Notes: a model not told the origin generated them from the letters alone. Numbered from the stretch's first letter, positions 35,201 to 53,463 are shown. The stretch: DNA of 64,000 nucleotides from Mycoavidus cysteinexigens (GCA_031963465.1 JASSUG010000003.1:117982-181981); one strand, 5' to 3'. Numbers and translations: made by a program.

Positions 35201-35506
35201 TATGTGCCGAATGCGGGTGCTGTTGATAATATGGAGCAATTTTTTAATGAAACAGAGTTTGGTAAGGAAATAAAACTTGTAGCTAGGGCTACTAAGGAAT
35301 TTTATGATGGTCAGAGAATATACGAAGTAACCAAAAAGATTAAGGGTAAGGTAGCGAAAAGGGATCTTTTTTATTTGGATAATAAACACTTGGATCATTT
35401 GGAGGTGCTTGACGCAAATAAATCTTTCAAGTATGTTTTGAATCTTGATGGCACAATTAATGAGATCAAAACAGAAAAAGCAAAAGGTAGAAGATTGGAG
35501 AAATAG
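26237..35506 (+). CDS. cdiA: CdiA/FhaB-family two-partner-secretion exoprotein with a C-terminal polymorphic toxin domain
   Basis: 3089 aa. TPS-domain motifs NAAGILYNQHANFNV and FSNANGIDCWGCNFLNT near the N-terminus, and long beta-helical hemagglutinin-type repeats. Conserved LGDGFYEQQLIRDQI...LTASPVWMVNQRVKLPDGSEQTVLMPKVYL block. TENN (VENN-like) boundary at 34742-34753, followed by a 250-aa tip. Confidence 0.85.
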   Translation: MGWMMLKPINGVSIQHIRSASITTNRQEPITPHSREEADSPTLNTAQPNAAGILYNQHANFNVDAPGVILQNGSTVRIILHHVIGRTLSQLNSVIKIAGEPAQLVFSNANGIDCWGCNFLNTKHLVLTTGEPILNSNGDLQAFRVKAGQITIKSNTTLKQFEQIDLIAYSIQVEGELSANKINMSTGTHEINYVDTGLPTITRRQELSIASSETNQSSRRASSLQFIETARVWAKKHLNIQADTLDNASHRVQSNGDLTVKAVSFTGAGTLSAALDLAAEFEEDYTHKNQLSAGRHLSISTPKRLINQGTIQTQGEVTLEATELENQAKSLIDGVHLTLKAGGSLRNHGVIQGGSIAIDAPSLVNDGTNHTEEHQAGAILAQRQLTIQAQTLRNQEHGLVRSDGELTIGDALGTQRKLTDSTQELVNSGSSMIESRGKLSIQVSLLDNQKGQITAHSDLILSSQAILNQEGRIEAQGEQSVFDVYTAAINNTSGWLLHTGTGQTQIVARVTIANFNTKAITGAGLIFGKGPLTIHSPEIINYEGGAIISDQMLKIKTPYLGNQLSTLSAGQKLEIDTDKLQNVGGLITVGEHEKFKAEAAHSVPSLARHAPDLGVLEVNAQEVINTAHKGEKAKGSLIRVQGKVVMKAEKIYNANKSQILGKEVDLNAKELFSNDASTVYASDTFSLKTHRLVNLGKGILQSEGKFHISVNDELGNLKGHIIASSDLVLKSKVLDNQEGHIETRGDQSVLDVQVDLINNASGQLLNTSAGQTQIVARQKMLNRNMDAVEGRGFIFGKGPVSVTSAEIVNDKGGVIFSNQMLEIKAADYVYNKFATLSAYQKIDINTPSLNNYAGGLISVGTEEAAKTATSTGVHSPDNLTHHAGVLTVHAKQVHNILDKGETQGGLIRLQGKVEMAADKIFNGNKSQILAKNVSLNTKELFFDVGGTVFVSDTLDLIGHIFKIKGEVQAKSIHLLSGVSQVCGTEAHSWKSTANTEFPDKEAQFSQSWMTVFQQAKMYVSGNLSISSSGSLLNQGELKIEGDISLKARSLENQASAVIDGRFLTLILHDQLRNDGVIQGSTVVISAQSLANDGSEDTDEHQAGAIMARRQLTIGAQTLHNQKHGLVHSDGELTIGGFLNAQYKVEGSAQTLNNTTSSTIESRDKLLIQVNHFDNQNGQITTSSDLVLRSKVLNNTHGHIEANGDQSVLNVQADTIDNTSGRLLHTGIGQIQILAHDSIVNRNAEGVKGAGFISGKGPVTVTAPQISNDEGGTFFSNQSLEIKSATLLDNQGTLHGKDHVWIEAKAISNGISRKTEVTGEPEEPEMALLSALSQLTNQLSKMIQGDFQPNEFKNPEYLITGNKISISAHDGLINTNAVIFAQNSLEIGAKCINNFEQGILYSGGNLTIGGQFDTQFKVTGVSEHVFNYGSTIDALGDLVINSETLLNANRKFKTEEQVIEQRDIHECHDHHTNQRYDGSQIGWHGDVGGLYRVHHSGVEIFCFTNYSFTRRVSTTVVTHSEPGKIQAGGEIRLSGAVINDKSRIIAGGALSDLEGGAAQINNRDANGQRVTTDQGTSQWSDRDWHGGMFSRGWSRDWSGHVPYHPAPVVEHHNLNVAVSQQHTAVDHQAPSTALVRTSALTSSSPFLNSGLQHFQLDPAQPYLIQTDPRFTRNSDTVSSNFLLSLLNLDPQRVPKRLGDGFYEQQLIRDQIIGLTGHYYLSGYRNQIAEFKALMHRGANWAKQHNLTLGIEPTPQQIAALTASPVWMVNQRVKLPDGSEQTVLMPKVYLANRDVSPIPLGGSLISANTIELHSDHPLKNAGTMISRGKMALTARNIDNQRGAIVSLDTLSIQASHNIDSRAGQLIAVKKMTLKAGQDLHLQSQTYTTHAASGSQTALDGVTEVRAKQLDAYAESDIHLAATQIKVDENARLEAKGDLTLGTATVSTQHQLTWDERNSLSLSRKTEIGTQIETGGSLELKSGRDIYAPGAYVNAGKGLSVKADRDINVEAAYEETDFEESHYHESSNFFSSSSELTQNKLYRKQALSSTLSGGTVQIEAGHDLNIMGSNVIGMHDVDLYAANDIQQKAVEQAERGRHYSVKERSGLLDSGQFGMTVGTRTQTDTQENEHTPQIGSVIGSVSGHVRAIAGREYKQSGSQLVVPTGDIQIQAGKAKIDASYEESRVWQRSEWQQSGLTVSVSAPVLAAAQTSQQMLQASTQVSDPRMQALAAGAGALAMKNAYDAIQADPKAAGGATVNVMIGEDHCETEQTQLSKTALNSTLAAGGNISIQIGGLGEESTLDLIGARIEAKQEITLNVEGRLNVEAAPNSLIEQSQQQSRSVAVGMAATLGSQNSVGASLAVSVGHGHADGAQISYTPTLIQAGGKLTLNAQSDVRLKGAQIAGAQVKAQIEGDLEIDSVQNTATYRSHSQSISGSVTVGPVSAASLHFSQRRMDSRYLSVAEQAGIQAGEGGFQITVKGDTKLVGGVIAGAEQAVREGRNTLLTGTLHQTDLTNQASYDASSISLGGGYSKSGKGVGSKQSGEVTTPAHSGNQLASRGGMSAAIPIVMSASGQAQSTTRSAISGAEIVITDEARQMELTGQSAAETIASLNRNSAHSHQALAPIFNRTEIEASFDIVNALGREAGTFIANRGREADHKLERAKNIETQANDESMSVAQRQELLAAAAELRAQAQTLNKQWGAGGSYRRIVTALTAAAAGNVTGTTAQFTQAAALNYLQSLGAEKIKHIADSLHDETARAALHGALAYGGAVARGQSGGAAALGASASVLVNTLLGPVEGESEEEKEARKNIVTSLVAGFADVGGVDATSAQTAAQIETENNAMVLAAPLLVTPPGLALLGLLGAVATGAVVVKGAMDYYEEYKERANNTKQPGEDDNQLVQQAPAPMFTLIMEPPQSSLIPGTAWHPDEEVLLGGKPNQSGEHVLQPIETPREVQSAAGNALENPIAEPLTILDTVKYSKGTKNANRDKDYVPNAGAVDNMEQFFNETEFGKEIKLVARATKEFYDGQRIYEVTKKIKGKVAKRDLFYLDNKHLDHLEVLDANKSFKYVLNLDGTINEIKTEKAKGRRLEK

Positions 35507-36468: not shown

Positions 36469-38103
36469 TCAAGCAGAGGCTGCGATGGATTGTTCGACAA
36501 GGTGCGGCAGAAGTGGAATTTGATCGCTGCACGAAATGCGGTCGGTGAGGTAATCCCAGAACGAGATGCCCAGCTTGCGACAGGTCTTCTTCAGGGTGGA
36601 GAAAGTATCGCGACATTGCCGACCGAGCTCGCTTCGCGTGCCACCACTGATCTTTTGCTTTTTCACGTGATCGCGAATGTCGCGTTCACTGTCGTTGGTG
36701 TGGAGTGGAACCTCAGGGCGTTCTAACACCAGTAGTAACTCGGATTTATTTTGGTGAATCCGCCTGAGCAGACGATTGAGTGTTGCGTAGCGGGTCTTCT
36801 GGGTGAAGATCGTATCAAAGCGCGCCGCCAGTGTTTTTTTGTCTGTAGCCGTGGGCTGCAGCTTGTATGCTTTCAGATCGGCATAGAGCGTCCAGATCTC
36901 GTCACGCACCCGGGCGATGTCCTCTCGATGTTGATCATTGAGCGGTAGCATCTTATGTACCAATCTTTCTGCATGGACCCAACATAATCCGTGAATCAGC
37001 ACGTTGAACTGCCCTGCATCATCGCTGATGATGGCCAGATCTGGGGAGACGCCACGCTGCTTCAGACTACCCAGCAGTGCGCCCTCGGTAGCAATGTTGC
37101 GGTGGCGCGGAGCGTCCATCCCCAAACAATCCAGGTGGTGCTGCCACGCTCCCTGGTCAGCGAAGCTTGTGCTCTCGTGTTGCCGCAGCGCGTCCAGGAA
37201 CACTTGCGAGAGCCCCTGCTTTTTCATGTACGCGAGCGCGTCTTCGTTGATCTGGTAATCGCCATGGCCCGCACGCAATAATGCCAGGAAATTGATCCGG
37301 CTCTTCGAGTCCGTGCTTTTGAACCACGCGAAATGCGGGTTACCAATGTGGGTGACGTAGCCGCTCCGGCCTCGATGCCGCGTGCCGGTATCATCAACCG
37401 TTACATACGCCGAGAGCGCCAAGCCGGTCGATAACAGCCCGTCTTTTTCCGCATGAAACTGCTCTTTGCCTTCTTGCAACAGCGTGTTTACCTGCCCCAC
37501 TGAGATCTCGATGCCCCATTCCCGCAGTTGCTCGCATAGCAGCGGCTGCGTGACGTGACAATGGTAGTGCTGGTAGAGCACATAGCTCACCAGAGCCGGG
37601 CCAAAATGGCCACCGCCGACTGATTTGGGAAGCTGCCCGATCAGAGTCTGGCCGTCTGGCGTTTGCCAGCGTGCCAGTCGATACCGCGTGTTGCGTGATT
37701 CGATTGTCAACTCTTGCACTACGAAATCACGATAGCCCTTGAATCGGGAACCTGGCGGAATCGGCTCGGCCGGTTCGATGATTGTGTCACGATCAATCTT
37801 CAGTTGCGCCGTCTTGTGCTTCTTCGCTGATCCGGGCCGTTTGGCCGCTTCCTCATTCTGCGTTTGATCTGGTTTGGCAGGCTTGCCAGCATCCTCGTTC
37901 ATGCGGCTTGGCTTGAACGTCGGACGCTTCTTTTCCCCCTGGAGCACCGCGACTTCGTCTTTCAGATGCCCTATGTCCTCCAGCAATTGATGGATGATTT
38001 CGACCAGTCCGTCACTCCATGCGAACACCTTCATGACCGCCGGCGTCCGATCGACTTCGGCGACATACGGTGCTGAGAGTTTCTTCAGCATGGCGCTTCT
38101 CAC
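36469..38103 (-). CDS. IS66-family transposase (DDE body)
   Basis: 544 aa. Typical IS66 TnpC-like sequence (DDTGTRH..., CWVHAERL, HTNDSERDIR...KISGGTRS). Confidence 0.85.
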   Translation of the reverse strand: MRSAMLKKLSAPYVAEVDRTPAVMKVFAWSDGLVEIIHQLLEDIGHLKDEVAVLQGEKKRPTFKPSRMNEDAGKPAKPDQTQNEEAAKRPGSAKKHKTAQLKIDRDTIIEPAEPIPPGSRFKGYRDFVVQELTIESRNTRYRLARWQTPDGQTLIGQLPKSVGGGHFGPALVSYVLYQHYHCHVTQPLLCEQLREWGIEISVGQVNTLLQEGKEQFHAEKDGLLSTGLALSAYVTVDDTGTRHRGRSGYVTHIGNPHFAWFKSTDSKSRINFLALLRAGHGDYQINEDALAYMKKQGLSQVFLDALRQHESTSFADQGAWQHHLDCLGMDAPRHRNIATEGALLGSLKQRGVSPDLAIISDDAGQFNVLIHGLCWVHAERLVHKMLPLNDQHREDIARVRDEIWTLYADLKAYKLQPTATDKKTLAARFDTIFTQKTRYATLNRLLRRIHQNKSELLLVLERPEVPLHTNDSERDIRDHVKKQKISGGTRSELGRQCRDTFSTLKKTCRKLGISFWDYLTDRISCSDQIPLLPHLVEQSIAASA

Positions 38104-41359: not shown

Positions 41360-41727
41360 GTAGTCTGTTGTACCTGCGACCTGGACAATATCTGTTTGAT
41401 TAGCCCCTACGGCGTGACTAAATTTCTAGTATGAGAGTTGTGATTGTATCGTCAGAAAGTTTCGTGACTTGCTTGATAAAATCAAAGGCTAGTAAGCGCG
41501 AAATTAATCCCACCATTGACAGAATGGGTAGAAGCGCGGAGACCTAGGGTTTACGAAGTGTCAAACGACGCAACGCGGCCTTTAAATAGCGCACGGATTT
41601 TTTGTGCGATCTTATTCCCTATTGAGTTATATCCAGAATACCTGACAAAACTACTCCCCTCGCAATATTGGAAATACAGCGACTATGCTTTGGCTTATTG
41701 ATTGCATAATCTCGACCTAGTTCTAAA

Positions 41728-43359
41728 CTAAGCCAGCCTATGTATGTCTATATTCTTGTTCTGATCAAAATTACTCTTCTTAAGCCATCGGTGGGTAATA
41801 GCTAGCGCCGCTACCAGGCTTCCTAAAACTTGGCCAATAAATAACCACTCGGCTTTTTTATTAGCTTCTGAGGATAAATACGCGCCTGCGGATAATCCCA
41901 GCAGATTTCCGGCCGTGTCGAGTATTGAAGCAAATAAGGTATCTTGCATACTCAGTAAGTTGCTAGTGCTGATATTTTTAAGTGTGTCGATAATGAGACC
42001 CACGCTATTAATAAATAAAAGCGTTTGCGCTAATGGCAGGGTTTCTTTGGGAATATCTTGTGAGGTATCGAGAAAAATTTCTGAGATTTGTTTGGAGAAA
42101 CCTGTAAATAACAGGAAAGCGCAGCATGCAGCAGACAAGCCTATGATCAGGCCTGCGTTGCCAAAGCGTCTGACGTTTTGCTGCAGGTGCTCGGTGAGTG
42201 TTGCCCCTTCACGATTTTCTACCGCGGCTTTTAATTCCCCCATCGCATTGGCAATCTCTACGCTTGTGGCTAATACCAAGCCCACGAGCATAGTATCAAC
42301 TGCCGATAAAGGTGTAGACGAAACCTCTTGCGCAATAGATACCTCTTTACCAAGGTTGCCAGCTAACAACGACAGAATGACTGCATGGGCTGAGACAAAT
42401 ACATTACTTAAGCCAATTGGCAGGCCAACTTTGAAAAGCGTTGAAATATCTTTGAAGTTTGGAAGATGCCAATCAAATAACTTAAATTCATCGTATTGCT
42501 CGCTAAATTTATAGTAAAGCCTCAATCCTATAGAACTTAGCGAAATGGCCAATGCATCCCCATAACCTAAACCTGCAACGCCTAAACGGGGAAAACCAAA
42601 AGCGCCGAGTGTTAGTGTGTAACCCAAAAATGAAGACAGAGCGGCATTTACCGTACCCACAATCAAAACAATTTCAGGCTGTTTGTTACCTCTTGCAAAG
42701 AATAGATCGCTCGCCAGCAAAAACGATGGCATAACGCTGTAACTTGCGGCATCACAATATTTTTGGGCGGCCTGCGAGACTTCTTCGGATATACCCAAAG
42801 TACTTAAAGAGGCGGAAACATTACGTAGCAATAGGATCGTAGGTAAGCTTAAGGCACCGCTAACCCACCAGCTTTGGGCAACAATTTCGCCGATTCTGGC
42901 TTTTTCTTGAGCACCATTTAATTCCCCTACAAACACACAAGTAGGAGTTAATATTCCTTGCACCAAGCCTTTGATTTGACCAGCGGATGCCACGGCTAAA
43001 GGGATGGCCGCCATTTCATTTTGGCTTAAGTGGCGTATCGCGATGCCACTAACGATCCCATGTAATACTGTGCCTAAACTAGACAGGCTCAAAGATACAG
43101 AGGGTTTGAATAGCTGATTGATAGCTGCACGGTAAGTGATAGACTCTGTTGGGTTAGGAGAACTTATCAAATTTGCAGTTTCTGATTCGATGGAAGCTAA
43201 TGTTTCTTCTGCGCTTATCTCTTCTTCTGCTATGCCTCTAGGCGCGCTGGTTACCCGAGGCTGCGTATAACTACTCGTGGGGGAGAGCGGAAGCTCTTCA
43301 CTATTTGAAGATAAGACTCGATATCTGGCAGATCCGGGAGAAGAGAGAGGCGAGATCAT
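41728..43359 (-). CDS. MATE-like polytopic membrane transporter with a roughly 85-aa Ser/Pro/Glu-rich N-terminal extension
   Basis: 543 aa. About 12 hydrophobic segments arranged as two halves, similar to MATE/MviN-type exporters. By eye G+C is clearly below the flanks. The family call is tentative. Confidence 0.55.
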   Translation of the reverse strand: MISPLSSPGSARYRVLSSNSEELPLSPTSSYTQPRVTSAPRGIAEEEISAEETLASIESETANLISSPNPTESITYRAAINQLFKPSVSLSLSSLGTVLHGIVSGIAIRHLSQNEMAAIPLAVASAGQIKGLVQGILTPTCVFVGELNGAQEKARIGEIVAQSWWVSGALSLPTILLLRNVSASLSTLGISEEVSQAAQKYCDAASYSVMPSFLLASDLFFARGNKQPEIVLIVGTVNAALSSFLGYTLTLGAFGFPRLGVAGLGYGDALAISLSSIGLRLYYKFSEQYDEFKLFDWHLPNFKDISTLFKVGLPIGLSNVFVSAHAVILSLLAGNLGKEVSIAQEVSSTPLSAVDTMLVGLVLATSVEIANAMGELKAAVENREGATLTEHLQQNVRRFGNAGLIIGLSAACCAFLLFTGFSKQISEIFLDTSQDIPKETLPLAQTLLFINSVGLIIDTLKNISTSNLLSMQDTLFASILDTAGNLLGLSAGAYLSSEANKKAEWLFIGQVLGSLVAALAITHRWLKKSNFDQNKNIDIHRLA

Positions 43360-43477
43360 TTATATTCCTTTGATAAACAGGTTTAGTCAGTTTATAAATT
43401 CAAAAGCAGAAACAAAATTTTCAGAAATGCCAGCTTTTTGCCAGCATTTCATCCCACAGCCTTATAAATATAAGCTC

Positions 43478-43510
43478 GGACGCGGATTCAATTCCCGCCG
43501 GCCCTCACCA
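43478..43510 (+). other. tmRNA (ssrA) 3'-end fragment: T-arm plus acceptor strand only; probable genomic-island att scar
   Basis: GGACGCGGATTCAATTCCCGCCGGCCCTCACCA versus the remembered E. coli ssrA end GGACGCGGGTTCAACTCCCGCCAGCTCCACCA. No tmRNA body lies upstream, where a CDS sits on the other strand. Confidence 0.6.
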
Positions 43511-43574
43511 TAAAATCCTTTAAAATCAATGGATTACGTTTTTTGAGATATCGTTTTTACGCCTGATTATCCCC

Positions 43575-43780
43575 CATTTCTAATTCAAATGCACTCTCAA
43601 TTGCCCAGCGCTGACCAGTAGTCTAGACGATGTCTTGCAAGGAGGCTGCATGAGGATAAGCAATCTCATGGGGTTTACGCACGCTACGACGTGAGCGACT
43701 CTGCCGTATTGATGACGGGCCTTATGGTCCAATCGTACAGGTGTGGCCTTTTGTGCCAAAGCTTGATTAAAAAAACTCAA
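43575..43780 (-). pseudogene. decayed DDE-transposase C-terminal remnant
   Basis: A minus-strand frame patchwork gives HEIAYPHAASLQDIV*TTGQRWAIESAFELEMG, which carries the Y..RW.IE..F motif of IS4/IS5/IS701-type transposases and is broken by stops. Confidence 0.4.
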
Positions 43781-43788
43781 AAAATTTC

Positions 43789-43816
43789 TTGCATAATTTT
43801 TCTCATCGTTTATAGT
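43789..43816 (+). promoter_or_regulatory. sigma70-like promoter candidate for the lasso-peptide operon
   Basis: TTGCAT (43789-43794), 16-nt spacer, TATAGT (43811-43816), about 125 nt upstream of the first precursor gene. Confidence 0.45.
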
Positions 43817-43941
43817 TTGAATACACGTGATGGAATTTAGAGGAAACCTTCGTTTTTGAGGATTCTATCCGTGTGCAGCAGATGTCATCCGCCTGCAGTA
43901 TGGGGCGGTTTATTTTTCATTATCAGAATGAGGAAGGAATC

Positions 43942-44076
43942 ATGACCAATAGCAAAAAAATCAACACACAAGATACCCAAGTGCAAGACGAAGCTCTGAC
44001 TGAGTTTTGTGCTTCCGAATCGACAATGGGTGGCTCAGGTCAATATAGAGAAGCTGGCGTTGGTCGGTTCCTATAA
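43942..44076 (+). CDS. lasso peptide precursor A1 (44 aa)
   Basis: GAGGAAGG RBS at 43930-43937. MTNSKKINTQDTQVQDEALTEFCASESTM / GGSGQYREAGVGRFL. Thr at -2, Gly1 and Glu8 are as expected for a class II lasso core. Confidence 0.8.
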   Translation: MTNSKKINTQDTQVQDEALTEFCASESTMGGSGQYREAGVGRFL

Positions 44077-44104
44077 GGATCGACTGATCGTCGCCTAAAG
44101 AATG

Positions 44105-44144
44105 CCAGGTGAGTATTTTAGAAGCAGATAAATGGCTTGCCTGG
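44105..44144 (+). terminator. stem-loop 29 nt after A1 (candidate attenuating hairpin)
   Basis: ccaggtgag pairs with cttgcctgg (9 bp including two G-U pairs). Homologous in position and sequence to the hairpin after A2. Confidence 0.4.
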
Positions 44145-44176
44145 TATCCTTTCAATGAAATAATGAGGAGAAAACC

Positions 44177-44311
44177 ATGATTAAGACTCAAGAACTCAAT
44201 CCACAAGCTATCCAATTAGACGATGAAGCGCTCACGCAATTTTGTGCTTCTGAAGCAACCATGGGTGGCTCAGGAAAATATAAAGAAGCGGGCATTGGCC
44301 GCTTCCTATAA
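44177..44311 (+). CDS. lasso peptide precursor A2 (44 aa, not in ORF track)
   Basis: GAGGAG RBS at 44165-44170. MIKTQELNPQAIQLDDEALTQFCASEATM / GGSGKYKEAGIGRFL. Confidence 0.8.
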   Translation: MIKTQELNPQAIQLDDEALTQFCASEATMGGSGKYKEAGIGRFL

Positions 44312-44341
44312 GAGTCATCGGCTTTTATAAACTTAAGGGGG

Positions 44342-44389
44342 ACGCCAGACAAGGCACTTAAGAGCAGATCAATAGCTTGTGTCTGGCGT
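44342..44389 (+). terminator. stem-loop 31 nt after A2 (10-bp perfect stem, then TTT); candidate partial terminator before the processing genes
   Basis: acgccagaca (44342-44351) pairs with tgtctggcgt (44380-44389), followed by tttg. Confidence 0.5.
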
Positions 44390-44421
44390 TTTGCGAAGAC
44401 CATTACATAAAAAAGAATAAG

Positions 44422-45234
44422 ATGCCTCATCATTTGATGCCCAATATTTTCGGGGCTTGCTTTTCAGGGCAAATTATTGTGCTCGACGTGATTCGTGACC
44501 GGTACGTCGTTTTATCTCATGGGCAGTCAGCCGCAGTCGCTCCTTATCTCGGTCTTGATTCGGCTTCTTTTGAAGCGAATGTTGCCCCCAATGCCAGCAT
44601 TTTGCAAAAATTAATCGATGCCCATTTAGTCACAGCACAAACGTTTTCGGCAGTCGATGCCAAATTAAATTCGCTCAGTCCTTCGCCTCAAACAGGTGGC
44701 ATGTCCGCTAACGGCTGGAAGCTGGCGGATAATGCTTTTGAGCATAGGCCTGCTTGGCGCTGGATCATCAGAGCGGTGCTTGACCTGAGAGCGGTACATA
44801 AGCGCGCTACCAAGCAGGGGCTCACTGGAATCTTGCAACTGTGCTCTCAAGCGATTGAGCAAAATGAACTGCATTTTGGTCAAACAGAAGAATACACACC
44901 TTTTGTGAATGCACTCAATTGGGCGTGTTTATTCTATCCAAAACCCACTAAATGCCTGGAGTGGTCTGCTGCGCTAACGCTCGTGTGTGCACGTGCGGGC
45001 CTGGCATCAAAGCTGTTGATTGGGGTGCAATCTTTCCCATTTTATGCGCATGCGTGGTCGGAAACCGACCATACGATCATTGGTGACAGTGCTCTGAGAA
45101 GAGAAGAGCTGTCCGTCATTCTTGAATTTCCAACACCGCTTTTGGAACTACCTTATGACCGTTCTCGGCATCGTTTATCCCCCAACACAGGAATTTTTAA
45201 CGCCAAACCGGGACTGGGTCTTAACTCAAGATAA
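44422..45234 (+). CDS. lasso peptide maturation protein B (fused leader-recognition element + transglutaminase-like cysteine protease)
   Basis: N-terminal PqqD-like GQIIVLDVIRDRYVVLS. C-terminal KCLEWSAAL...FYAHAWSE...IIGD gives a Cys-32-His-12-Asp spacing, the same as I recall for McjB. ATG at 44422 preferred. Confidence 0.85.
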   Translation: MPHHLMPNIFGACFSGQIIVLDVIRDRYVVLSHGQSAAVAPYLGLDSASFEANVAPNASILQKLIDAHLVTAQTFSAVDAKLNSLSPSPQTGGMSANGWKLADNAFEHRPAWRWIIRAVLDLRAVHKRATKQGLTGILQLCSQAIEQNELHFGQTEEYTPFVNALNWACLFYPKPTKCLEWSAALTLVCARAGLASKLLIGVQSFPFYAHAWSETDHTIIGDSALRREELSVILEFPTPLLELPYDRSRHRLSPNTGIFNAKPGLGLNSR

Positions 45235-46900
45235 AACCGGCCAAATAGCCGGTGCGTTATGGCAGGAGGCAGACGAACGCCATCCTACATGCACTCTGTA
45301 TCGTGAGAGCGAAGCATATTTCTATGGCTTTTATGGGCAAGCTTTTTCAAAGCAAGACAATACTGAAATTAATGAAAATGACTTGCGTGAGATTGCCTTA
45401 AAAGGTCCGTCTTTGTTAACCGCTAAATTTTGGGGGCGGTATTTATTTGTCTGCTTTGATAAGGTAGCCAAGAAATTCATTTGCTGTTGCGATCCGAGTA
45501 ATCGGTGGGCAATCTATTGGGCATGGTCTGAGCGCCACGGGCTGTGGTTTTCAGACAGCATTACCTGCTTGCATCAGACGCTCAAGGAGAGAGGCGAGCG
45601 CCCGGGATGGAATACCTCGTTTTTTACCACTTGGCTGCGAACCGGCTCAGTGCAAAGTGGCGAGTTGCCATTTGAGGGTATTTCGGAGTTGCCACCAGGA
45701 TGCGCTATTTTCTATACGTACGGGCATCAGCCAGACATGTTGCCAGTTTGGAATCCGCTGACGAGCGCGACAGATGGCTTAACTTCTCAAAATCCATATG
45801 AGATTTTGAAAAACTATCTGAGCTTGCAGATGCCAAACGATGAACGGCCGGTATTAGAACTTTCAGGCGGTTTGGAGTCGAGTTCCGTTTTACTGGCATT
45901 GCGCGCAGTAGCGCCTAAGCAGCAGATTGCTTGCGCCCATTATTACAATTCGGCGGTGGGCTCGTCTAATGAGCTTGAGCATGCCCGTCGCGTTGCCCAA
46001 AGCGCGGGTGCTCAGCTCGGTGAAATCGACACTGACGTTTTGTCGTTTGCGCCGGTCAAAGACCTGCCGCGTGTTGCCAAGCCGCATATCCGTTATTGCT
46101 TGCTGGCCTTTAATCAGCATTTTGCGAGCCGACTCGAACAGCGTGAAAACAGTGTGTTGATTAGCGGACATGGTGGGGATTCGCTCTTTCTAGCGCCGCC
46201 GCCTTTTGGCGTGCTGGCCGATGCCATGCTCACGTTGCGCTGGCGACAGCTGTTTCGGATTGCGATGGATTTGGCATTGATCCGTAGAACATCGCTCGCT
46301 CACATTGCGTGGCAGGCCATCAAGTCGTCACTGGCGGCAGACCCCTCTGAGGGCGTGAATGGCACATTTGGCTTAATGTCTGATGCGGCCCAATTACCCT
46401 CCCTGGATGGCCGCTCTCATTTGCATCCGTTTATGCAAAAAAACAAGACTCGTTTGCCTGGTAAGCTATACCAATTATGCCTCGCCTATTTATCGCTCGA
46501 TGATGTAAGAACGCCGGCGTATCCATTCAAAAAGGGTACGCATTATCCATTTCTTTGTCAGCCAATGGTCGAATATGCGCTGTCGATACCCAGCTATCGT
46601 CATTTTGATGGTCCGCATAATCGAATTATCGTTAGGCAATCTGTCTCCGAGGCCACCGGCTATGCGCATCTTTGGCGCCGCAACAAAGGCGAAACCTCCG
46701 GTATCGATTTGCTTGGCATACGCCAACATAAGGATCATGTGATGGCGCACTGCCTTGAAGGTTTTCTCGCCAAAGAAGGGTATATCGATCCGATTAAAAC
46801 CCGTACTGCAATCCAGGAAAGTTGCAAAGGCCGTAGCGAATATTTTATGGATATTCTTCATCTTTATGCTGCAGAACTCTTTATTCAGGGATGGCAATAG
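45155..46900 (+). CDS. lasso cyclase C (asparagine-synthetase-like, ATP-dependent lactam synthetase)
   Basis: PP-loop LSGGLESSSVLLAL and AsnB-like layout. Start at the ATG at 45155 (MTVLGIVYPP) is assumed, giving an 80-nt overlap with B. Confidence 0.85.
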   Translation: MTVLGIVYPPTQEFLTPNRDWVLTQDKTGQIAGALWQEADERHPTCTLYRESEAYFYGFYGQAFSKQDNTEINENDLREIALKGPSLLTAKFWGRYLFVCFDKVAKKFICCCDPSNRWAIYWAWSERHGLWFSDSITCLHQTLKERGERPGWNTSFFTTWLRTGSVQSGELPFEGISELPPGCAIFYTYGHQPDMLPVWNPLTSATDGLTSQNPYEILKNYLSLQMPNDERPVLELSGGLESSSVLLALRAVAPKQQIACAHYYNSAVGSSNELEHARRVAQSAGAQLGEIDTDVLSFAPVKDLPRVAKPHIRYCLLAFNQHFASRLEQRENSVLISGHGGDSLFLAPPPFGVLADAMLTLRWRQLFRIAMDLALIRRTSLAHIAWQAIKSSLAADPSEGVNGTFGLMSDAAQLPSLDGRSHLHPFMQKNKTRLPGKLYQLCLAYLSLDDVRTPAYPFKKGTHYPFLCQPMVEYALSIPSYRHFDGPHNRIIVRQSVSEATGYAHLWRRNKGETSGIDLLGIRQHKDHVMAHCLEGFLAKEGYIDPIKTRTAIQESCKGRSEYFMDILHLYAAELFIQGWQ

Positions 46901-46903
46901 CCA

Positions 46904-48700
46904 ATGAAATCACTCAACATGCCTAAAGCCTTCAAGGCGCTTCGTTTTCTATTTAGCTGCTTATGGACGCATGAGCGATATGCCCGCTGGCAAGTGCTAG
47001 CAGCTACTGGATGTACCGGATTTTCAATTGGTCTGGCGGTGGTGACGCCAGTGCTGCTTAAATTGCTGATTGATGATTTTTCTAATTTATCGACTTCATC
47101 CATTACCGCTTATATGCTATGCGTGGCGTATGGCTGTGCGTGGTTCTTTTCACAGGCGTTGCGGCGCGGCGAGCAGTATCTGGTGACGGCCATTAATGAG
47201 CGCATCAAACGCTCGATTACGGTCAATTATGTTAGCCAAGTCCTGAACCGTCCCGCTACTGCGCTGAGTGAGCACCAAAGCGGTGCTTCGGCGAGCGAGG
47301 TAAGCCGCGCACAAGACAGCGTGATGCGTGCGCTGATTGGGATTTTTTGGCATATTGCGCCACTGTGCATTGAAATTTGTCTAGCGTGCACCGTCGTGTT
47401 TATGATGTTTGGCGCGCTTTATGCTTTTGTCTTACTCGGATTTTTATCGGCTTATCTGTATTCCACTACCTTGACAGTTTCCCACTACACGGGCTTACAG
47501 CGTCAGAAAAATCTAGCCTCGGACCGTGCTTCAACGGTGCTGATTGATACCCTCACGCATGCCGATACGGTCAAAGCTTTTTCAAATGAAGCGGGCGAAT
47601 TGAGGCAGCTCGACCGAGTTTACAAGGCGCGAGAACAAGCGAGTGTCGAGCTTGCCCGCAAAATGGAAATCTTCGGCGTACTGCAGTTACTGATTGTTGG
47701 CATTGGGCTCGCTACGCTGACAAGTCTGGCGTGCCGAGATATCTTTGCGCACCGGCTTACCGTGGGCGATTTCGCGCTGTTAAATGGTTATCTTTTGCAA
47801 TTCACCCTGCCATTGAGTTCTTTTGGTTATGCCATCCGTGAAGCACGGCTTGGTTTGTTCAATCTCGAAGAACTGCTGGATAAATTGGAGACCCGCTGGG
47901 AGTTCAAGTCTGCTAGTGATGCGTTGTTTGAGCGCGCGCCATCGATTCAATTTAAGCATGCGAGTTTTAGCCATGCCCCGGATAAATACGTTTTGCGAGA
48001 TGCGAGCTTTACCGTTCCAGCTGGTGCCTTTTGTGCGATTGTCGGCCCGACGGGCGCTGGCAAGTCGACCTTGATGAAGTTGTTATTGCGTTTGTATTCA
48101 TTGGATAGCGGAGCGATTTTGATTGATGGTCGACCGATCGAATCGTTTGCTGAGCACAAGTTGCGTCAGTCGGTCAGTTATGCCACTCAGGACGCGCATT
48201 TGCTAGACCGATCGCTACGCGAAAACATCAGTTTTGCTTGTCCGCATGCATCAGACGCAGAACTTGAGCGGGCCATCGGTACCGCGGCGCTTACGCCAGT
48301 GATTGCGGCGGCACATGCTGGGCTCGAAACTCAAATCGGTGAGCGTGGCAATAAACTTTCAGGGGGGGAGCGGCAGCGTGTCACGCTGGCCCGCGCACTT
48401 CTGAGGCAAAGTCATTTACTCCTTTTAGACGAGCCAACAGCCGCACTCGATGGGCAAACTGAAGCGACGATTTTTAAGCATTTGCATGAACGGTATCGGC
48501 AAACCACCCGGCTGATCATCGCTCACCGGCTATCAGCCATTCAACACGCGGATTTGATCCTAGTGTTAAAAGATGGCGCGATTGCTGAGCAAGGCACTCA
48601 TGGTAGTTTGTTGGCGAAAAATGGCATCTATGCGAGCCTTTGGTATAAGCAGGTTGGGTCACCGATGCTTGAACAGTGCCAAGTCAGCGCCGTGTTTTGA
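46904..48700 (+). CDS. McjD-like ABC exporter (fused permease-ATPase) for export/self-immunity
   Basis: 598 aa with six N-terminal TM segments. Walker A GPTGAGKST, signature LSGGERQR, Walker B LLLLDEPT, H-loop IIAHRL. Confidence 0.85.
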   Translation: MKSLNMPKAFKALRFLFSCLWTHERYARWQVLAATGCTGFSIGLAVVTPVLLKLLIDDFSNLSTSSITAYMLCVAYGCAWFFSQALRRGEQYLVTAINERIKRSITVNYVSQVLNRPATALSEHQSGASASEVSRAQDSVMRALIGIFWHIAPLCIEICLACTVVFMMFGALYAFVLLGFLSAYLYSTTLTVSHYTGLQRQKNLASDRASTVLIDTLTHADTVKAFSNEAGELRQLDRVYKAREQASVELARKMEIFGVLQLLIVGIGLATLTSLACRDIFAHRLTVGDFALLNGYLLQFTLPLSSFGYAIREARLGLFNLEELLDKLETRWEFKSASDALFERAPSIQFKHASFSHAPDKYVLRDASFTVPAGAFCAIVGPTGAGKSTLMKLLLRLYSLDSGAILIDGRPIESFAEHKLRQSVSYATQDAHLLDRSLRENISFACPHASDAELERAIGTAALTPVIAAAHAGLETQIGERGNKLSGGERQRVTLARALLRQSHLLLLDEPTAALDGQTEATIFKHLHERYRQTTRLIIAHRLSAIQHADLILVLKDGAIAEQGTHGSLLAKNGIYASLWYKQVGSPMLEQCQVSAVF

Positions 48701-48946
48701 AGTGGCCGGTAGTGGCGGCGTAGCTTGGCAGGATCCAAGCATTTAGTGCAATCATGCGATTGTTTTATAGCGTGGACCTTTGTTTTAGAGCTTGGATCTG
48801 GATTAAGCTAAGCCGCAATCAGCCGGCGCTGGCGCCGGCAGCGAGGCGCCACATTCAGCGCTAGGCCGGCGAATGTATAGCGGCTTCCACCAAGCGGCTT
48901 CAATCAAGTAAAATAGTCGCTTTTACTTCTCTTCTCAGCACATCGA

Positions 48947-49516
48947 ATGACAATTAAATCCGATAAATGGATTCGGCGTATGGCCGAAACGCATAAGATG
49001 ATCGAGCCGTTTTCAGCGAACCAAGTTCGTCTCGGCGAAGATGGCCGAAAGATTGTCAGCTATGGCACCTCAAGCTATGGCTACGATATTCGGTGTGCGG
49101 ACGAATTTAAAATTTTCACCAATATTAATTCAACGATCGTCGATCCGAAAAATTTTGATGAAAAATCGTTTGTTGATTTTAAGGGCGAGGTGTGTATTAT
49201 TCCGCCCAATTCGTTTGCGCTGGCGCGTACGGTTGAGTATTTTCGGATTCCGCGCAGTGTCTTGACGGTGTGCCTAGGAAAATCGACCTATGCGCGCTGT
49301 GGCATTATCGTTAATGTGACGCCGTTTGAGCCAGAATGGGAAGGTTTTGTGACGCTGGAATTTTCGAATACGACACCGCTGCCCGCCAAGATTTACGCTA
49401 ATGAAGGCGTGGCGCAGGTATTATTTTTTGAGAGCGACGAGGTATGTGAGGTCTCATATCGTGATCGTGACGGAAAATATCAGGGGCAAAGCGGCGTGAC
49501 TTTGCCCAAAGCTTAA
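48947..49516 (+). CDS. dcd: dCTP deaminase
   Basis: 189 aa. [16 protein letters not shown] and EFSNTTPLP motifs. Confidence 0.93.
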
Positions 49517-49640
49517 GCCCTTAATGTGCGGCTTTGGCCGCTGAAGTTTGAGTAAAACGCTGCGTGCTTGTGATCTTGGGCAGACATACCCGGTAGCCAC
49601 GCTTTGAAATTCTCTCCCCCGTCTTTGAGAAACCTCTTTA

Positions 49641-51914
49641 ATGAAATTTCGTTTTCCCATCGTTATTATCGATGAAGATTTTCGCTCCGAAAATATTTCG
49701 GGCTCTGGTATTCGTGCGTTGGCTGAAGCGATTGAAGGCGCAGGCATGGAGGTGCTTGGCTTAACCAGTTACGGGGACCTGACATCCTTTGCGCAACAGT
49801 CAAGCCGCGCCTCGTGTTTCATTCTGTCAATTGATGACGATGAAATCAGCGCCAGCGGCGTTGATGAAAATGGCGAAATCATGGACGCCTTGATTGCCTT
49901 GCGTGCTTTCATCGCCGAGGTGCGCCGGCGTAATGCTGATCTGCCGATTTTTTTGTATGGCGAGACGCGCACCTCGCGGCATATTCCAAACGATATTTTG
50001 CGTGAGCTGCACGGCTTTATTCATATGTTTGAAGATACGCCGGAGTTTGTGGCGCGCCATATTATACGGGAGGCGAAAAGCTATCTTAATGCGCTGGCGC
50101 CGCCGTTTTTTCGGGCGTTGACCCATTATGCTTCGGATAGTTCATATTCGTGGCATTGCCCAGGGCACTCGGGGGGCGTCGCGTTTTTAAAAAGTCCGAT
50201 TGGTCAGATGTTTCATCAGTTTTTTGGTGAAAACATGCTGCGTGCTGATGTCTGCAATGCCGTCGATGAATTGGGCCAATTACTTGATCATACGGGGCCA
50301 GTAGCTGCCTCTGAACATAATGCAGCGCGCATTTTTAATGCCGATCATGTGTTTTTTGTCACCAACGGCACATCGACTTCTAACAAGATTGTTTGGCACG
50401 CAACCGTGGCGCCTGATGATATTGTTTTGGTTGACCGAAATTGCCATAAATCGATTTTGCATGCGATTACAATGACTGGCGCGATCCCCGTGTTTTTAAC
50501 CCCCACACGCAATCACTATGGGATTATCGGCCCCATTCCACGGGATGAATTTAAGCCAGAAAACATTCGCCGCAAGATTGAAGCAAACCCGTTTGCGCGT
50601 GAGGTGCTCAAGCGAAATCCACTTGTGCGGCCACGGATCTTGACCATCACGCAAAGCACCTATGATGGGGTGGTGTACAACGTTGAAATGATTAAAGAGC
50701 TGCTTGGAGATCTGCTGGACACGTTGCATTTTGACGAAGCGTGGTTGCCACATGCAGAGTTTCACCCTTTTTACCGGGATATGCACGCGATTGGCGCCGG
50801 CCGTGCACGCACCGGTGCACTGGTCTTTGCGACGCATTCAACGCATAAATTACTGGCGGGTATTTCGCAAGCATCGCAGATTGTGGTGCAAGATTCCGAG
50901 CATTTTACGTTTGATCGGCATCGCTTTAACGAAGCGTATCTGATGCATACCTCAACCAGCCCGCAATACGCGATTATTGCCTCGTGCGATGTGGCGGCTG
51001 CCATGATGGAGCCGCCTGGCGGCACTGCGCTGGTCGAGGAGTCGATTGCCGAGGCGCTTGATTTTCGCCGTGCCATGCGCAAAGTGGGGGCTGACTATGA
51101 TGCTGATTGGTGGTTTGAGGTTTGGGGGCCAGGTGCTTTAGCTGAAGAAGGCATCGGGGACCGTGCCGATTGGATGCTGGCGCCGAATGACCGCTGGCAT
51201 GGCTTTGGCGAGCTTGCCGAGAATTTTAATATGTTGGACCCGATCAAGGCGACGATTATTACGCCAGGGCTTAATGTAGACGGAGAATTTGGCGAAACGG
51301 GTATCCCCGCTGCGATGGTCACGCGCTATCTTGCCGAGCATGGCATTATTGTTGAAAAAACTGGGCTCTATTCTTTTTTCATCATGTTTACCATTGGCAT
51401 TACGAAGGGCCGCTGGAATAGTATGGTGACCGAACTCCAGCAATTTAAGGATGACTACGACAGTAACCAGCCGCTATGGCGCATCTTGCCGGAGTTTGTG
51501 GCCAGCTATCCGGCCTATGAAAAAGTCGGCTTGCAGGATTTGTGTCAACAGATTCATACGGTCTATAAGTCAAACGATGTGGCCCGGATGACTACGGAGA
51601 TGTATCTGTCCAATATGGAACCCGCGATGAAGCCGGCTGATGCATTTGCCAAACTCGCGCACCGCGAAATCGATCGGGTCCCGATTAATGAACTCGAAGG
51701 TCGTGTCACGAGTGTACTATTAACGCCTTATCCGCCGGGCATTCCGTTGTTAATCCCAGGTGAGCGCTTTAATCGTGCGATTGTCCGTTATTTACAATTT
51801 GCGCGTGAATTTAACCAGCATTTTCCGGGTTTTTATACGGATATTCACGGTCTGGTGGCAGAGATCGTGAATGGGCGCACTGAATATTTTGTCGATTGCG
51901 TGCGCAGTGCATGA
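49641..51914 (+). CDS. large fold-type I Orn/Lys/Arg decarboxylase (wing + PLP + C-terminal domains)
   Basis: 757 aa. PLP-lysine motif HSTHKLLAG. Substrate cannot be assigned from sequence alone. Confidence 0.85.
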   Translation: MKFRFPIVIIDEDFRSENISGSGIRALAEAIEGAGMEVLGLTSYGDLTSFAQQSSRASCFILSIDDDEISASGVDENGEIMDALIALRAFIAEVRRRNADLPIFLYGETRTSRHIPNDILRELHGFIHMFEDTPEFVARHIIREAKSYLNALAPPFFRALTHYASDSSYSWHCPGHSGGVAFLKSPIGQMFHQFFGENMLRADVCNAVDELGQLLDHTGPVAASEHNAARIFNADHVFFVTNGTSTSNKIVWHATVAPDDIVLVDRNCHKSILHAITMTGAIPVFLTPTRNHYGIIGPIPRDEFKPENIRRKIEANPFAREVLKRNPLVRPRILTITQSTYDGVVYNVEMIKELLGDLLDTLHFDEAWLPHAEFHPFYRDMHAIGAGRARTGALVFATHSTHKLLAGISQASQIVVQDSEHFTFDRHRFNEAYLMHTSTSPQYAIIASCDVAAAMMEPPGGTALVEESIAEALDFRRAMRKVGADYDADWWFEVWGPGALAEEGIGDRADWMLAPNDRWHGFGELAENFNMLDPIKATIITPGLNVDGEFGETGIPAAMVTRYLAEHGIIVEKTGLYSFFIMFTIGITKGRWNSMVTELQQFKDDYDSNQPLWRILPEFVASYPAYEKVGLQDLCQQIHTVYKSNDVARMTTEMYLSNMEPAMKPADAFAKLAHREIDRVPINELEGRVTSVLLTPYPPGIPLLIPGERFNRAIVRYLQFAREFNQHFPGFYTDIHGLVAEIVNGRTEYFVDCVRSA

Positions 51915-51946
51915 CCTGTGTATCAAATAGCGTGTTGAATTAAGTT

Positions 51947-51987
51947 TAAGTAACGTCAGGTCACATTATCCGAACTGACGTTACTTA
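51947..51987. terminator. 13-bp perfect hairpin between convergent genes (candidate bidirectional terminator)
   Basis: taagtaacgtcag (51947-51959) and ctgacgttactta (51975-51987) with a 15-nt loop. Confidence 0.5.
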
Positions 51988-52088
51988 GGCGCTTTGCAAG
52001 CGGCAACCAGTACTAACGTTACTTAGACGCTTTGCAAGCGGCGACCAGCACTGACGTTACTTAAGTGCTTCACGCGCGGCATTCAGTG
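51975..52088. repeat. 38-nt tandem repeat, three diverged copies, the last being the real 3' end of argH
   Basis: ctgacgttacttaggcgctttgcaagcggcaaccagta / ctaacgttacttagacgctttgcaagcggcgaccagca / ctgacgttacttaagtgcttcacgcgcggcattcagtg. Confidence 0.85.
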
Positions 52089-53463
52089 CCAACTGGACTT
52101 GTTCCGGCGCCGTGCCACCTGGATGCCGGCGGCTTGCGACTGAGCCTTCGAGCGTTAAATAGCTAAACACCTCTGGCTCGATTAAGGATGCATTCTCCGG
52201 CAGGATAGCGCGTAACTCAGCCAGCGTGAGGTCGGTCAGATCGCAATCGCGTTCGACGCAAACACGCACTGCATGCGCCACGGCTTCATGCGCATCGCGA
52301 AACGGTACGCCGCGCCTGACCAAATAATCGGCTAAATCCGTGGCTGTCGCATACCCTTGTAATGCTGCTGCGCGCATGGCTGTGGGTTTGACCTCAATGC
52401 CGCTCACCATATCTGCAAAGATGCGCAAGGTATCGGTTATCGTGTCAACGGTATCGAATAGGGGCTCTTTATCTTCCTGATTGTCTTTGTTATAGGCCAG
52501 CGGCTGCCCTTTAACCAAGGTTAATAACGCTATCAGGTTGCCGTTGATGCGGCCAGTCTTGCCGCGAGCAAGCTCGGGAATATCGGGGTTCTTCTTTTGC
52601 GGCATGATCGATGAGCCGGTACAAAAACGGTCAGCTAAATCAATAAACCCCACGCGCGGGCTCATCCACAGCACCAACTCTTCAGAGAAACGCGAGAGAT
52701 GAGTCATAATCAGAGCGGCCGTGGCCGTGAATTCAATCGTAAAATCTCGATCGGAGACGGCATCGAGTGAATTGGCGCATAGCTTATCAAAGCCAAGTAA
52801 ATCGGCAACCCGCTGCCGGTCAATCGGATAACTGGTGCCGGCCAGAGCAGCAGCGCCTAAGGGCAGATGGTTGACGCGCTTGCGGCAATCTAGTAAACGT
52901 TCGCTGTCGCGCGCTAGCATTTCGACATAAGCCAGTAAATGGTGGCCAAAGGTGACGGGCTGAGCCACTTGCAAATGCGTAAAACCGGGCAAAATCGTTG
53001 CCACGTGATGTTGGGCAAGATCGATCAGAACACGCCGCAACTCAATTAGGAGCGTATGGATGTGATCGATTTCACCGCGTAACCAGAGCCGCATATCCGT
53101 CGCGATTTGATCATTGCGTGAGCGGCCGGTATGCAAGCGTTTACCCGCGTCACCAATCAGTGTAGTGAGGCGTGCTTCAATATTTAAATGGACATCTTCT
53201 AAAATAAGCTGCCAGTTGAATTCACCGCGTTCTATTTCATCTCGGATTTGCGCCATCCCACGCTTGATTTGGTTGAGGTCATTCAGGCTGATGATGGCGC
53301 ATTCCGCCAGCATCGTGGCGTGGGCGAGTGACGCTTCGATATCGACGAAAGCTAGCCGTTTATCAACAAAAACCGATGAAGTGTAGCGCTGGACGAGTTC
53401 GGATAACGGTTCGGAAAAACGAGCCGACCATGCTTCGCCTTTTTTATTAAGCTGAGAGGTCAT
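52057..53463 (-). CDS. argH: argininosuccinate lyase
   Basis: 468 aa from the ATG at 53463 ([19 protein letters not shown]). Fumarate-lyase signature [12 protein letters not shown]. Confidence 0.93.

Follow-up and report, generated by a model that had tools for sequence, protein, structure and literature searches.

Lasso peptides of the microcin J25 and capistruin types are encoded by clusters that follow one logic (McjABCD and CapABCD), combining a precursor (A), a recognition element for peptides that are made ribosomally and then modified post-translationally (RiPP recognition element [RRE]) fused to a Cys-His-Asp protease (B), an asparagine-synthetase-like protein (C), and an ATP-binding cassette (ABC) exporter (D). 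The same logic, with a probable RRE fusion in B, was seen in a five-gene cluster, A1-A2-B-C-D, in a 64,000-nucleotide (nt) stretch of the Mycoavidus cysteinexigens genome (GCA_031963465.1, JASSUG010000003.1:117982-181981), which is referred to below, at its full length, as the window. Mycoavidus species are endosymbionts of Mortierellaceae. The closest described peptides are the mycetohabins, which, according to reviews, were obtained by Bratovanov et al. (2020, ACS Chem Biol 15:1169) through heterologous expression of Mycetohabitans rhizoxinica genes.

The LassoPred paper (PMC12214591) tabulates mycetohabin-15 as GGSGQYREAGVGRFL, mycetohabin-16 as GGSGKYKEAGVGRFLD, and burhizin as GGAGQYKEVEAGRWSDRIDSDDE, and the same paper gives residue 13 as the upper plug of all three. 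Burhizin has a Gly1-Glu8 ring, and BurB was described as an RRE-peptidase fusion (bioRxiv 10.1101/2020.11.25.399105). The biological role of the peptides has been described as still unknown (PMC12696581), and they were reported not to be required for colonization of the fungus (PMC12301960). In the literature that we searched, no paper specifically on the lasso clusters of Mycoavidus was found. On the evidence set out below, the window locus is very probably the Mycoavidus ortholog of the Mycetohabitans mycetohabin (mhb) lasso cluster, within the burhizin/mycetohabin family. The cluster is a new, uncharacterized addition to a family that is known and has been annotated before.

Precursors, enzymes, and predicted products

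The cluster consists of five intact, co-oriented genes on the plus strand (Table 1), in agreement with the complete proteobacterial-type lasso cluster proposed in a first-pass annotation of the sequence. Both of the short genes that the annotation had placed before B were recovered, each behind a GAGGA-type ribosome-binding site (RBS; upstream sequence GAGGAAGGA for A1 and GAGGAGAAAA for A2). The precursors passed the NCBIfam model NF042427, "burhizin family lasso peptide" (A1, 88.8 bits; A2, 87.5 bits; cutoff, 45 bits), which bears out the likeness to burhizin noted earlier, and the Pfam model PF19392 (A1, 74 bits; A2, 89 bits; cutoff, 25 bits). These scores, with the match of B to the lasso B2 model given below, put the cluster far beyond chance. 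Precursors of lasso clusters are short, with Thr at leader position -2, Gly or a small residue at core position 1, and Asp or Glu at positions 7 to 9. Both leaders here end in ...S/A-T-M and both cores open with GGSG.Y.E..., so that Thr-2, Gly1, and Glu8 were read in each precursor as had been claimed, and the two cores predicted earlier, each following ...T-M, agreed exactly with ours. The A1 and A2 units, with RBS and downstream hairpin included, form a tandem duplication (80% nt identity).

The A1 core, GGSGQYREAGVGRFL, is identical to mycetohabin-15 at 15 of 15 positions. The A2 core, GGSGKYKEAGIGRFL, is that of mycetohabin-16 with V11I and without Asp16, and the two are thus not identical. 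As predicted from the cores, the A1 product is the published mycetohabin-15 (predicted M = 1534.764, linear mass minus H2O), and the A2 product is a close congener, not mycetohabin-16 itself, which appears undescribed (predicted M = 1520.810, calculated likewise). The exact 44-residue product of A1 is present in NCBI data. Core variation within Mycoavidus was confined to GGSG[QK]Y[RK]EAG[VI]GRF[LM]. In six loci, the amino acids of the Q-type core were the same even though its 45 nt differed by as many as 8 synonymous changes. The A2 core is set apart by V11I from the remaining K-type cores observed in Mycoavidus.

The B protein matched PF13471 (63 bits) and passed NF033537, lasso_biosyn_B2 (64.5 bits; cutoff, 33). 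Its candidate leader-peptidase triad, Cys178, His210, and Asp222, was invariant in 15 homologs and has the spacing of 32 and 12 residues reported in the first-pass annotation. The open reading frame (ORF) of B spans 44377-45234, and the ATG at 44422 was chosen as the start by alignment with 14 homologs. In an AlphaFold2 model of B (predicted local distance difference test [pLDDT] score, 75), three strands and three helices (residues 9 to 66) are followed by a helical/beta protease domain. When the N-terminal unit was compared with the lasso RRE TbiB1 by Foldseek, the match was weak (target-normalized TM-score, 0.55; probability, 0.75; E = 0.46), and a Pfam scan of B gave no match to PqqD. The fusion of an RRE to the N terminus of B is therefore supported by the model but not proven.

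The C protein matched PF00733 (65.6 bits; cutoff, 21) and carries SGGLES, the candidate PP-loop motif of the cyclase that the first-pass annotation had named, at residues 237 to 242. Within an ORF of 45122-46900, we took the ATG at 45155 as the start; its 581-residue product is an exact entry in NCBI data. B and C overlap by 80 nt (45155-45234). The Mycoavidus B proteins have an extra C-terminal tail of about 25 residues (LPYDRSRHRLS...) that is not in Mycetohabitans B, and the B stop and C start of Mycetohabitans overlap by only 4 nt.

McjD-type exporters are half-transporters with a transmembrane domain and a nucleotide-binding domain, without a peptidase domain, encoded directly after C. 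The D protein, encoded after a gap of 3 nt, combines PF00664 (ABC_membrane) with PF00005 (ABC_tran) and resembles type-IV ABC exporters in the PDB over its full length. The earlier McjD-type call thus holds for domain content and position, but the 60 highest-ranking PDB matches of D were ABCB1, ABCB4, Atm1, and ABCB6/7 and did not include McjD itself. D occupies the same position in the Mycetohabitans bur and mhb clusters and in all complete (nondegraded) Mycoavidus clusters that we fetched.

The region ahead of A1 was also conserved. Homology to four Mycoavidus loci (L001, L002, L010, and L015) restarts exactly at 43761, past a strain-variable insert, and the motif TTGCAT-16 nt-TATAGT lies at 43789-43816. 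Scans with consensus promoters and terminators gave matches no better than the chance level; the region may function as the promoter. The 100-nt spacer between A1 and A2 folds at -28.4 kcal/mol (z = -3.3; 0 of 200 shuffles folded equally well), and its sequence is conserved where L002 and L010 have a spacer between A genes. The 110-nt spacer between A2 and B folds at -28.5 kcal/mol (z = -3.0 versus shuffles), with arms CGCCAGACAAGG and CTTGTGTCTGGCG that are kept in all five of the aligned spacers between the last A gene and B. The precursor-distal spacers yielded no usable covariation in a consensus fold, being too alike or divided into two classes. The A2-B stem-loop is a putative attenuator or transcript-stabilizing element.

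Gene content, family membership, catalytic residues, orthology, and purifying selection were read from the sequences. Processing, topology, export, and any biological role are inferred by analogy with the family, and we propose the following route. The tandem precursor genes would be transcribed from the shared upstream region, and the stable stem-loop behind each of them would probably keep precursor mRNA in excess over BCD mRNA. The RRE-like N-terminal domain of B would bind the leader (...FCASE-x-T-M), and the protease, through Cys178/His210/Asp222, would cleave after Met-1, with Thr-2 as the recognition residue. C would then adenylate the side chain of Glu8 via the SGGLES PP-loop and link Glu8 to the amine of Gly1 around the prefolded tail. 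The resulting 8-residue ring would be held by the plugs Arg13 above and Phe14 below, and the peptides would be exported by D. The ring and plug assignments coincide with those of the first-pass annotation, a functional call that we judge to be right on the sequences.

Table 1. Coordinates of the features discussed in the text. Positions are those of the window unless another locus is named.
Feature	Position	Strand	Product	Basis or remark
MATE-family efflux gene	41728-43359	-	543 aa	PF01554, TIGR00797; GC 0.445
tmRNA (ssrA) 3'-end fragment, 33 nt	43477-43509	+		att-like scar belonging to the MATE insert
Putative promoter and 5' untranslated region of precursor operon	43761-43941	+		conserved among orthologous loci
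A1 precursor	43942-44076	+	44 aa	ORF and RBS; leader MTNSKKINTQDTQVQDEALTEFCASESTM, core GGSGQYREAGVGRFL
Stem-loop after A1	44097-44152	+		fold of 100-nt A1-A2 spacer
A2 precursor	44177-44311	+	44 aa	ORF and RBS; leader MIKTQELNPQAIQLDDEALTQFCASEATM, core GGSGKYKEAGIGRFL
Stem-loop between A2 and B, then UUUU	44340-44391	+		fold of 110-nt spacer
B, leader-binding (RRE-like) domain fused to transglutaminase-fold cysteine protease	44422-45234	+	270 aa	
C, asparagine-synthetase-like lasso cyclase	45155-46900	+	581 aa	
D, ABC half-transporter, presumed exporter and self-protection	46904-48700	+	598 aa	
dcd	48947-49516			after D
Paralogous lasso cluster, L003	2-208			
Paralogous lasso cluster, L004	5062-5208			
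Paralogous lasso cluster, L005	1074-1238			
Paralogous lasso cluster, L006	5633-5803			

Orthologous clusters and chromosomal setting

Orthologs of the cluster were found within and outside the genus. The locus L015 is colinear with 41382-52394 of the window at 96% nt identity; C is 95 to 96% identical to C of Mycoavidus metagenome-assembled genomes (MAGs), and B is 89% identical to B of M. cysteinexigens B1-EB. For B, C, and D, respectively, identity was 66, 65, and 70% with the counterparts in Mycetohabitans sp. B6 (L013), a cluster whose precursor carries the mycetohabin-16 core, and 63, 60, and 66% with the burhizin set (L007). Relative to M. cysteinexigens, the ratio of nonsynonymous to synonymous substitution rates (dN/dS) was 0.11 for both B and D and 0.10 for C; the three genes are under purifying selection. 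The name "burhizin family lasso peptide" is already attached by NCBI to precursors in Mycoavidus sp. SF9855, HKI, B2-EB, and M. cysteinexigens.

Several observations weigh against the assignment to the mhb family or limit it. The compound sequences of the mycetohabins were drawn from a secondary table (PMC12214591). The structural matches of B were weak, the best being the transglutaminase-fold cysteine protease 3isr (E = 6e-3). C matched the NCBIfam lasso and macrolactam cyclase models only weakly, with all scores under the curated cutoffs. Searches of PDB sequences with B and C returned no sequence-level relatives. Because of these last two results, the assignment of B and C rests on Pfam, motifs, context, and orthology. 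Finally, loss of function does occur in the genus, where some lasso clusters have decayed. In a Mycoavidus MAG (JASSUJ; L012, 8001-10889), a precursor with the mycetohabin-15 core and C were called, and B and D were not; a gene for a protein with an NEL domain (E3-ligase-like effector) lies upstream of this decayed cluster. The second case is L006, in which B is cut down to a 75-residue remnant.

The L006 locus belongs to a second, paralogous lasso cluster of Mycoavidus genomes (L003 to L006; C, 64 to 78% identical). Its precursors have the same type of leader and another core, GAVGE[KR]NEAGFGKYD..., of 17 to 19 residues, which appears to be uncharacterized.

The chromosomal site is common to the Mycoavidus genomes examined, with the order OmpA-mrp-sodC, cluster, dcd. 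Upstream, the order of the OmpA-family gene, mrp/apbC, and sodC is shared with M. cysteinexigens B1-EB (L010); downstream, dcd, which lies next to the cluster as reported, is followed by genes for an Orn/Lys/Arg decarboxylase and argininosuccinate lyase in an order kept in the closest MAGs (L001, L002, and L015). The GC content of 43789-48700 was 0.492 versus 0.505 for the window, at the 24th percentile of equal-sized windows (B, 0.487; C, 0.497; D, 0.511), and the GC content at third codon positions (GC3) of C and D equaled that of flanking core genes. These values contradict the earlier description of the cluster as a low-GC island: only the upstream stretch with the MATE insert is low, and the 3 kb of lowest GC content in the window (0.435) span the MATE gene, the spacer, and the precursors (41400-44400). 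The combination of deviating composition and integration hallmarks at the borders, by which an island is recognized, was absent from the cluster, and only 41382-43760 is low in GC with an ssrA fragment. A recent horizontal gain of the whole cluster was rejected on synteny and GC content.

The cluster had also been said to lie next to mobile-element scars. This was partly borne out, by the tmRNA fragment upstream (Table 1) but not by the flanking ORFs: in six small ORFs of the flanks, Pfam detected no remnants of transposases or integrases, and Rfam and ARAGORN called no tRNA or other RNA gene there. The nearest transposase, of the IS66 family (36469-38103, minus strand), is 5.7 kb off, beyond the OmpA-family gene, mrp, and sodC. 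Farther upstream, 26237-35506 encodes a 3089-residue protein of the two-partner-secretion, filamentous hemagglutinin type (TPS domain and hemagglutinin repeats), followed by a 285-residue ORF without a Pfam match and then by the IS66-family transposase gene.

Alternative readings of the locus

A wider functional unit, in which the divergent MATE gene provides the lasso cluster with accessory export or immunity, is conceivable but in our view unlikely. The gene lies in a strain-variable 2.4-kb insert (41382-43760) that separates sodC from the putative promoter region of the lasso genes; its protein has an N-terminal extension of about 90 residues rich in Ser, Pro, and Thr. By sequence comparison, it belongs to a divergent clade, with homologs of at least 60% identity in NCBI contigs (including several Mycoavidus MAG contigs) and in Logan/JGI contigs and with the next matches at about 25%. 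Members of this clade stand beside burhizin-family clusters in the window and in L015, in both of which the gene is found between sodC and A1. Additionally, paralogs share the strand of D and follow it by 28 nt in a second lasso cluster (L016, L017, and L020) that is only 67% related at the nt level. The synonymous divergence (dS) of the MATE gene from the L016 copy was 0.17, while B, C, and D were saturated in the same comparison; the MATE gene has therefore moved recently between two different lasso clusters.

However, the orthologous clusters in L001, L002, and L010 lack the insert with its MATE gene, and an exporter is already supplied by D. Paralogs occur outside lasso clusters as well, directly after the gene for a 5414-residue nonribosomal peptide synthetase (L022) and within a MATE-MATE-HipBA-ssrA island that has no neighboring lasso genes (L018). 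The 3' end of the tmRNA gene is the classical att site of ssrA-targeting islands, and the att-like fragment in the insert (GGACGCGGATTCAATTCCCGCCGGCCCTCACCA, compared directly with the true Mycoavidus tmRNA 3' end of L018, GGACGCGGGTTCGATTCCCGCCGGCTCCACCA) fits hitchhiking mobile cargo. This fragment was not called by ARAGORN or Rfam; the same fragment is found beside the MATE modules of L015 (8858-8883) and L016 (9447-9473). The MATE protein may assist in the export of secondary metabolites, or the gene may be mere island cargo.

The first-pass annotation expected the product to be a new congener and not one already known, and the corresponding reading, that the cluster encodes congeners distinct from any characterized lasso peptide, is very unlikely. 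The check for identical cores already deposited as a characterized peptide returned one, and the claim of novelty is refuted because the A1 core is identical to the characterized mycetohabin-15. What speaks for novelty is confined to A2, whose core was not found in the literature searched and departs from mycetohabin-16 in length and at position 11, where it also differs from the other K-type cores. Even so, the change amounts to one conservative substitution and the loss of a terminal Asp, the Ile11 core is also present in a public genome (L015), and the genes already bear the family name at NCBI. As a natural-product lead, the cluster adds little, since one product is published, the other is a conservative variant, and the genes are already annotated publicly.

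A reduced endosymbiont genome could also harbor the cluster as a silent or decaying relic that yields no product, as the degraded copies in related Mycoavidus genomes (A and C only in L012; the B remnant in L006) and the chance-level promoter scan might suggest. This reading is highly improbable, since all five ORFs are full length relative to their orthologs, B retains its catalytic residues, B, C, and D have dN/dS values of about 0.1, and the changes in the core are synonymous only.

Recurrence of the core and comparison with known systems

The core of A1 recurs outside the endosymbionts. When 1.84 billion representative proteins were screened with a profile, the precursors proved to have only 12 relatives there, including those of Robbsia and Streptomyces described next. 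Together with the endosymbiont genera Mycoavidus and Mycetohabitans, the settings of the identical core GGSGQYREAGVGRFL include the plant pathogen Robbsia andropogonis, where it follows a different short leader, and Streptomyces gobitricini (BAAASR010000022; L021, 8001-12667; P0100, P0102, and P0103). The S. gobitricini cluster has the actinobacterial layout A-C-B1(PqqD)-B2-D, an unrelated leader of the YxxP type, and fully GC-rich codons, and its enzymes share only 27 to 41% local identity with those of the window. In the literature searched, the identity of the whole core across phyla was not found to be discussed. Judged from the sequences, this recurrence points to transfer or convergence of a lasso core across phyla.

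Because the cluster is conserved and the same core recurs across phyla, a real biological role can be argued. One speculative extension, to which we assign a low probability, is that the exact core in the four settings was transferred or arose convergently and is held unchanged at each residue by a conserved target, with export in Mycoavidus perhaps reinforced by the mobile MATE module on an ssrA-targeting island. If this were true and the target were fungal or widely shared, mycetohabin-15 would be a cross-phylum effector rather than an endosymbiont curiosity. The comparative value of the locus lies in the two precursor types in tandem, the purifying selection, the shared site, and a second genus of fungal endosymbionts.

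As the probable Mycoavidus ortholog of mhb, the window cluster has the architecture of the Mycetohabitans mhb cluster, A(n)-B(fused)-C-D, and its enzymes resemble the mhb set more than the bur set. Of the first 15 residues of mycetohabin-16, 14 are shared by the A2 core, and the upper plug at residue 13 given for the mycetohabins (PMC12214591) is the one predicted for the window products. Differences from mhb are found in the host, here the Mortierella-type endosymbiont Mycoavidus, with a window of about 50% GC, and in the two precursor types, which the window cluster itself encodes in tandem; in M. rhizoxinica, the gene for the mycetohabin-15 precursor is reportedly an orphan that lies far from the cluster. 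At the end of the leader, the window has T-M and mhb has T-L; the K-type core of the window has Ile11 and is without Asp16, and the tail of its B gene overlaps C. Burhizin (burhizin-23, from the bur cluster of M. rhizoxinica) belongs to the same NF042427/PF19392 family and shares the ring motif GG[AS]GQY[KR]E and the Gly1-Glu8 isopeptide predicted for the window products, but it is 23 residues long with an acidic tail (GGAGQYKEVEAGRWSDRIDSDDE), whereas the predicted window products are 15-mers ending in GRFL. Relative to the microcin J25 and capistruin types, B and C of the window have no detectable PDB-level relation, and the predicted ring is one of 8 residues closed via Glu.

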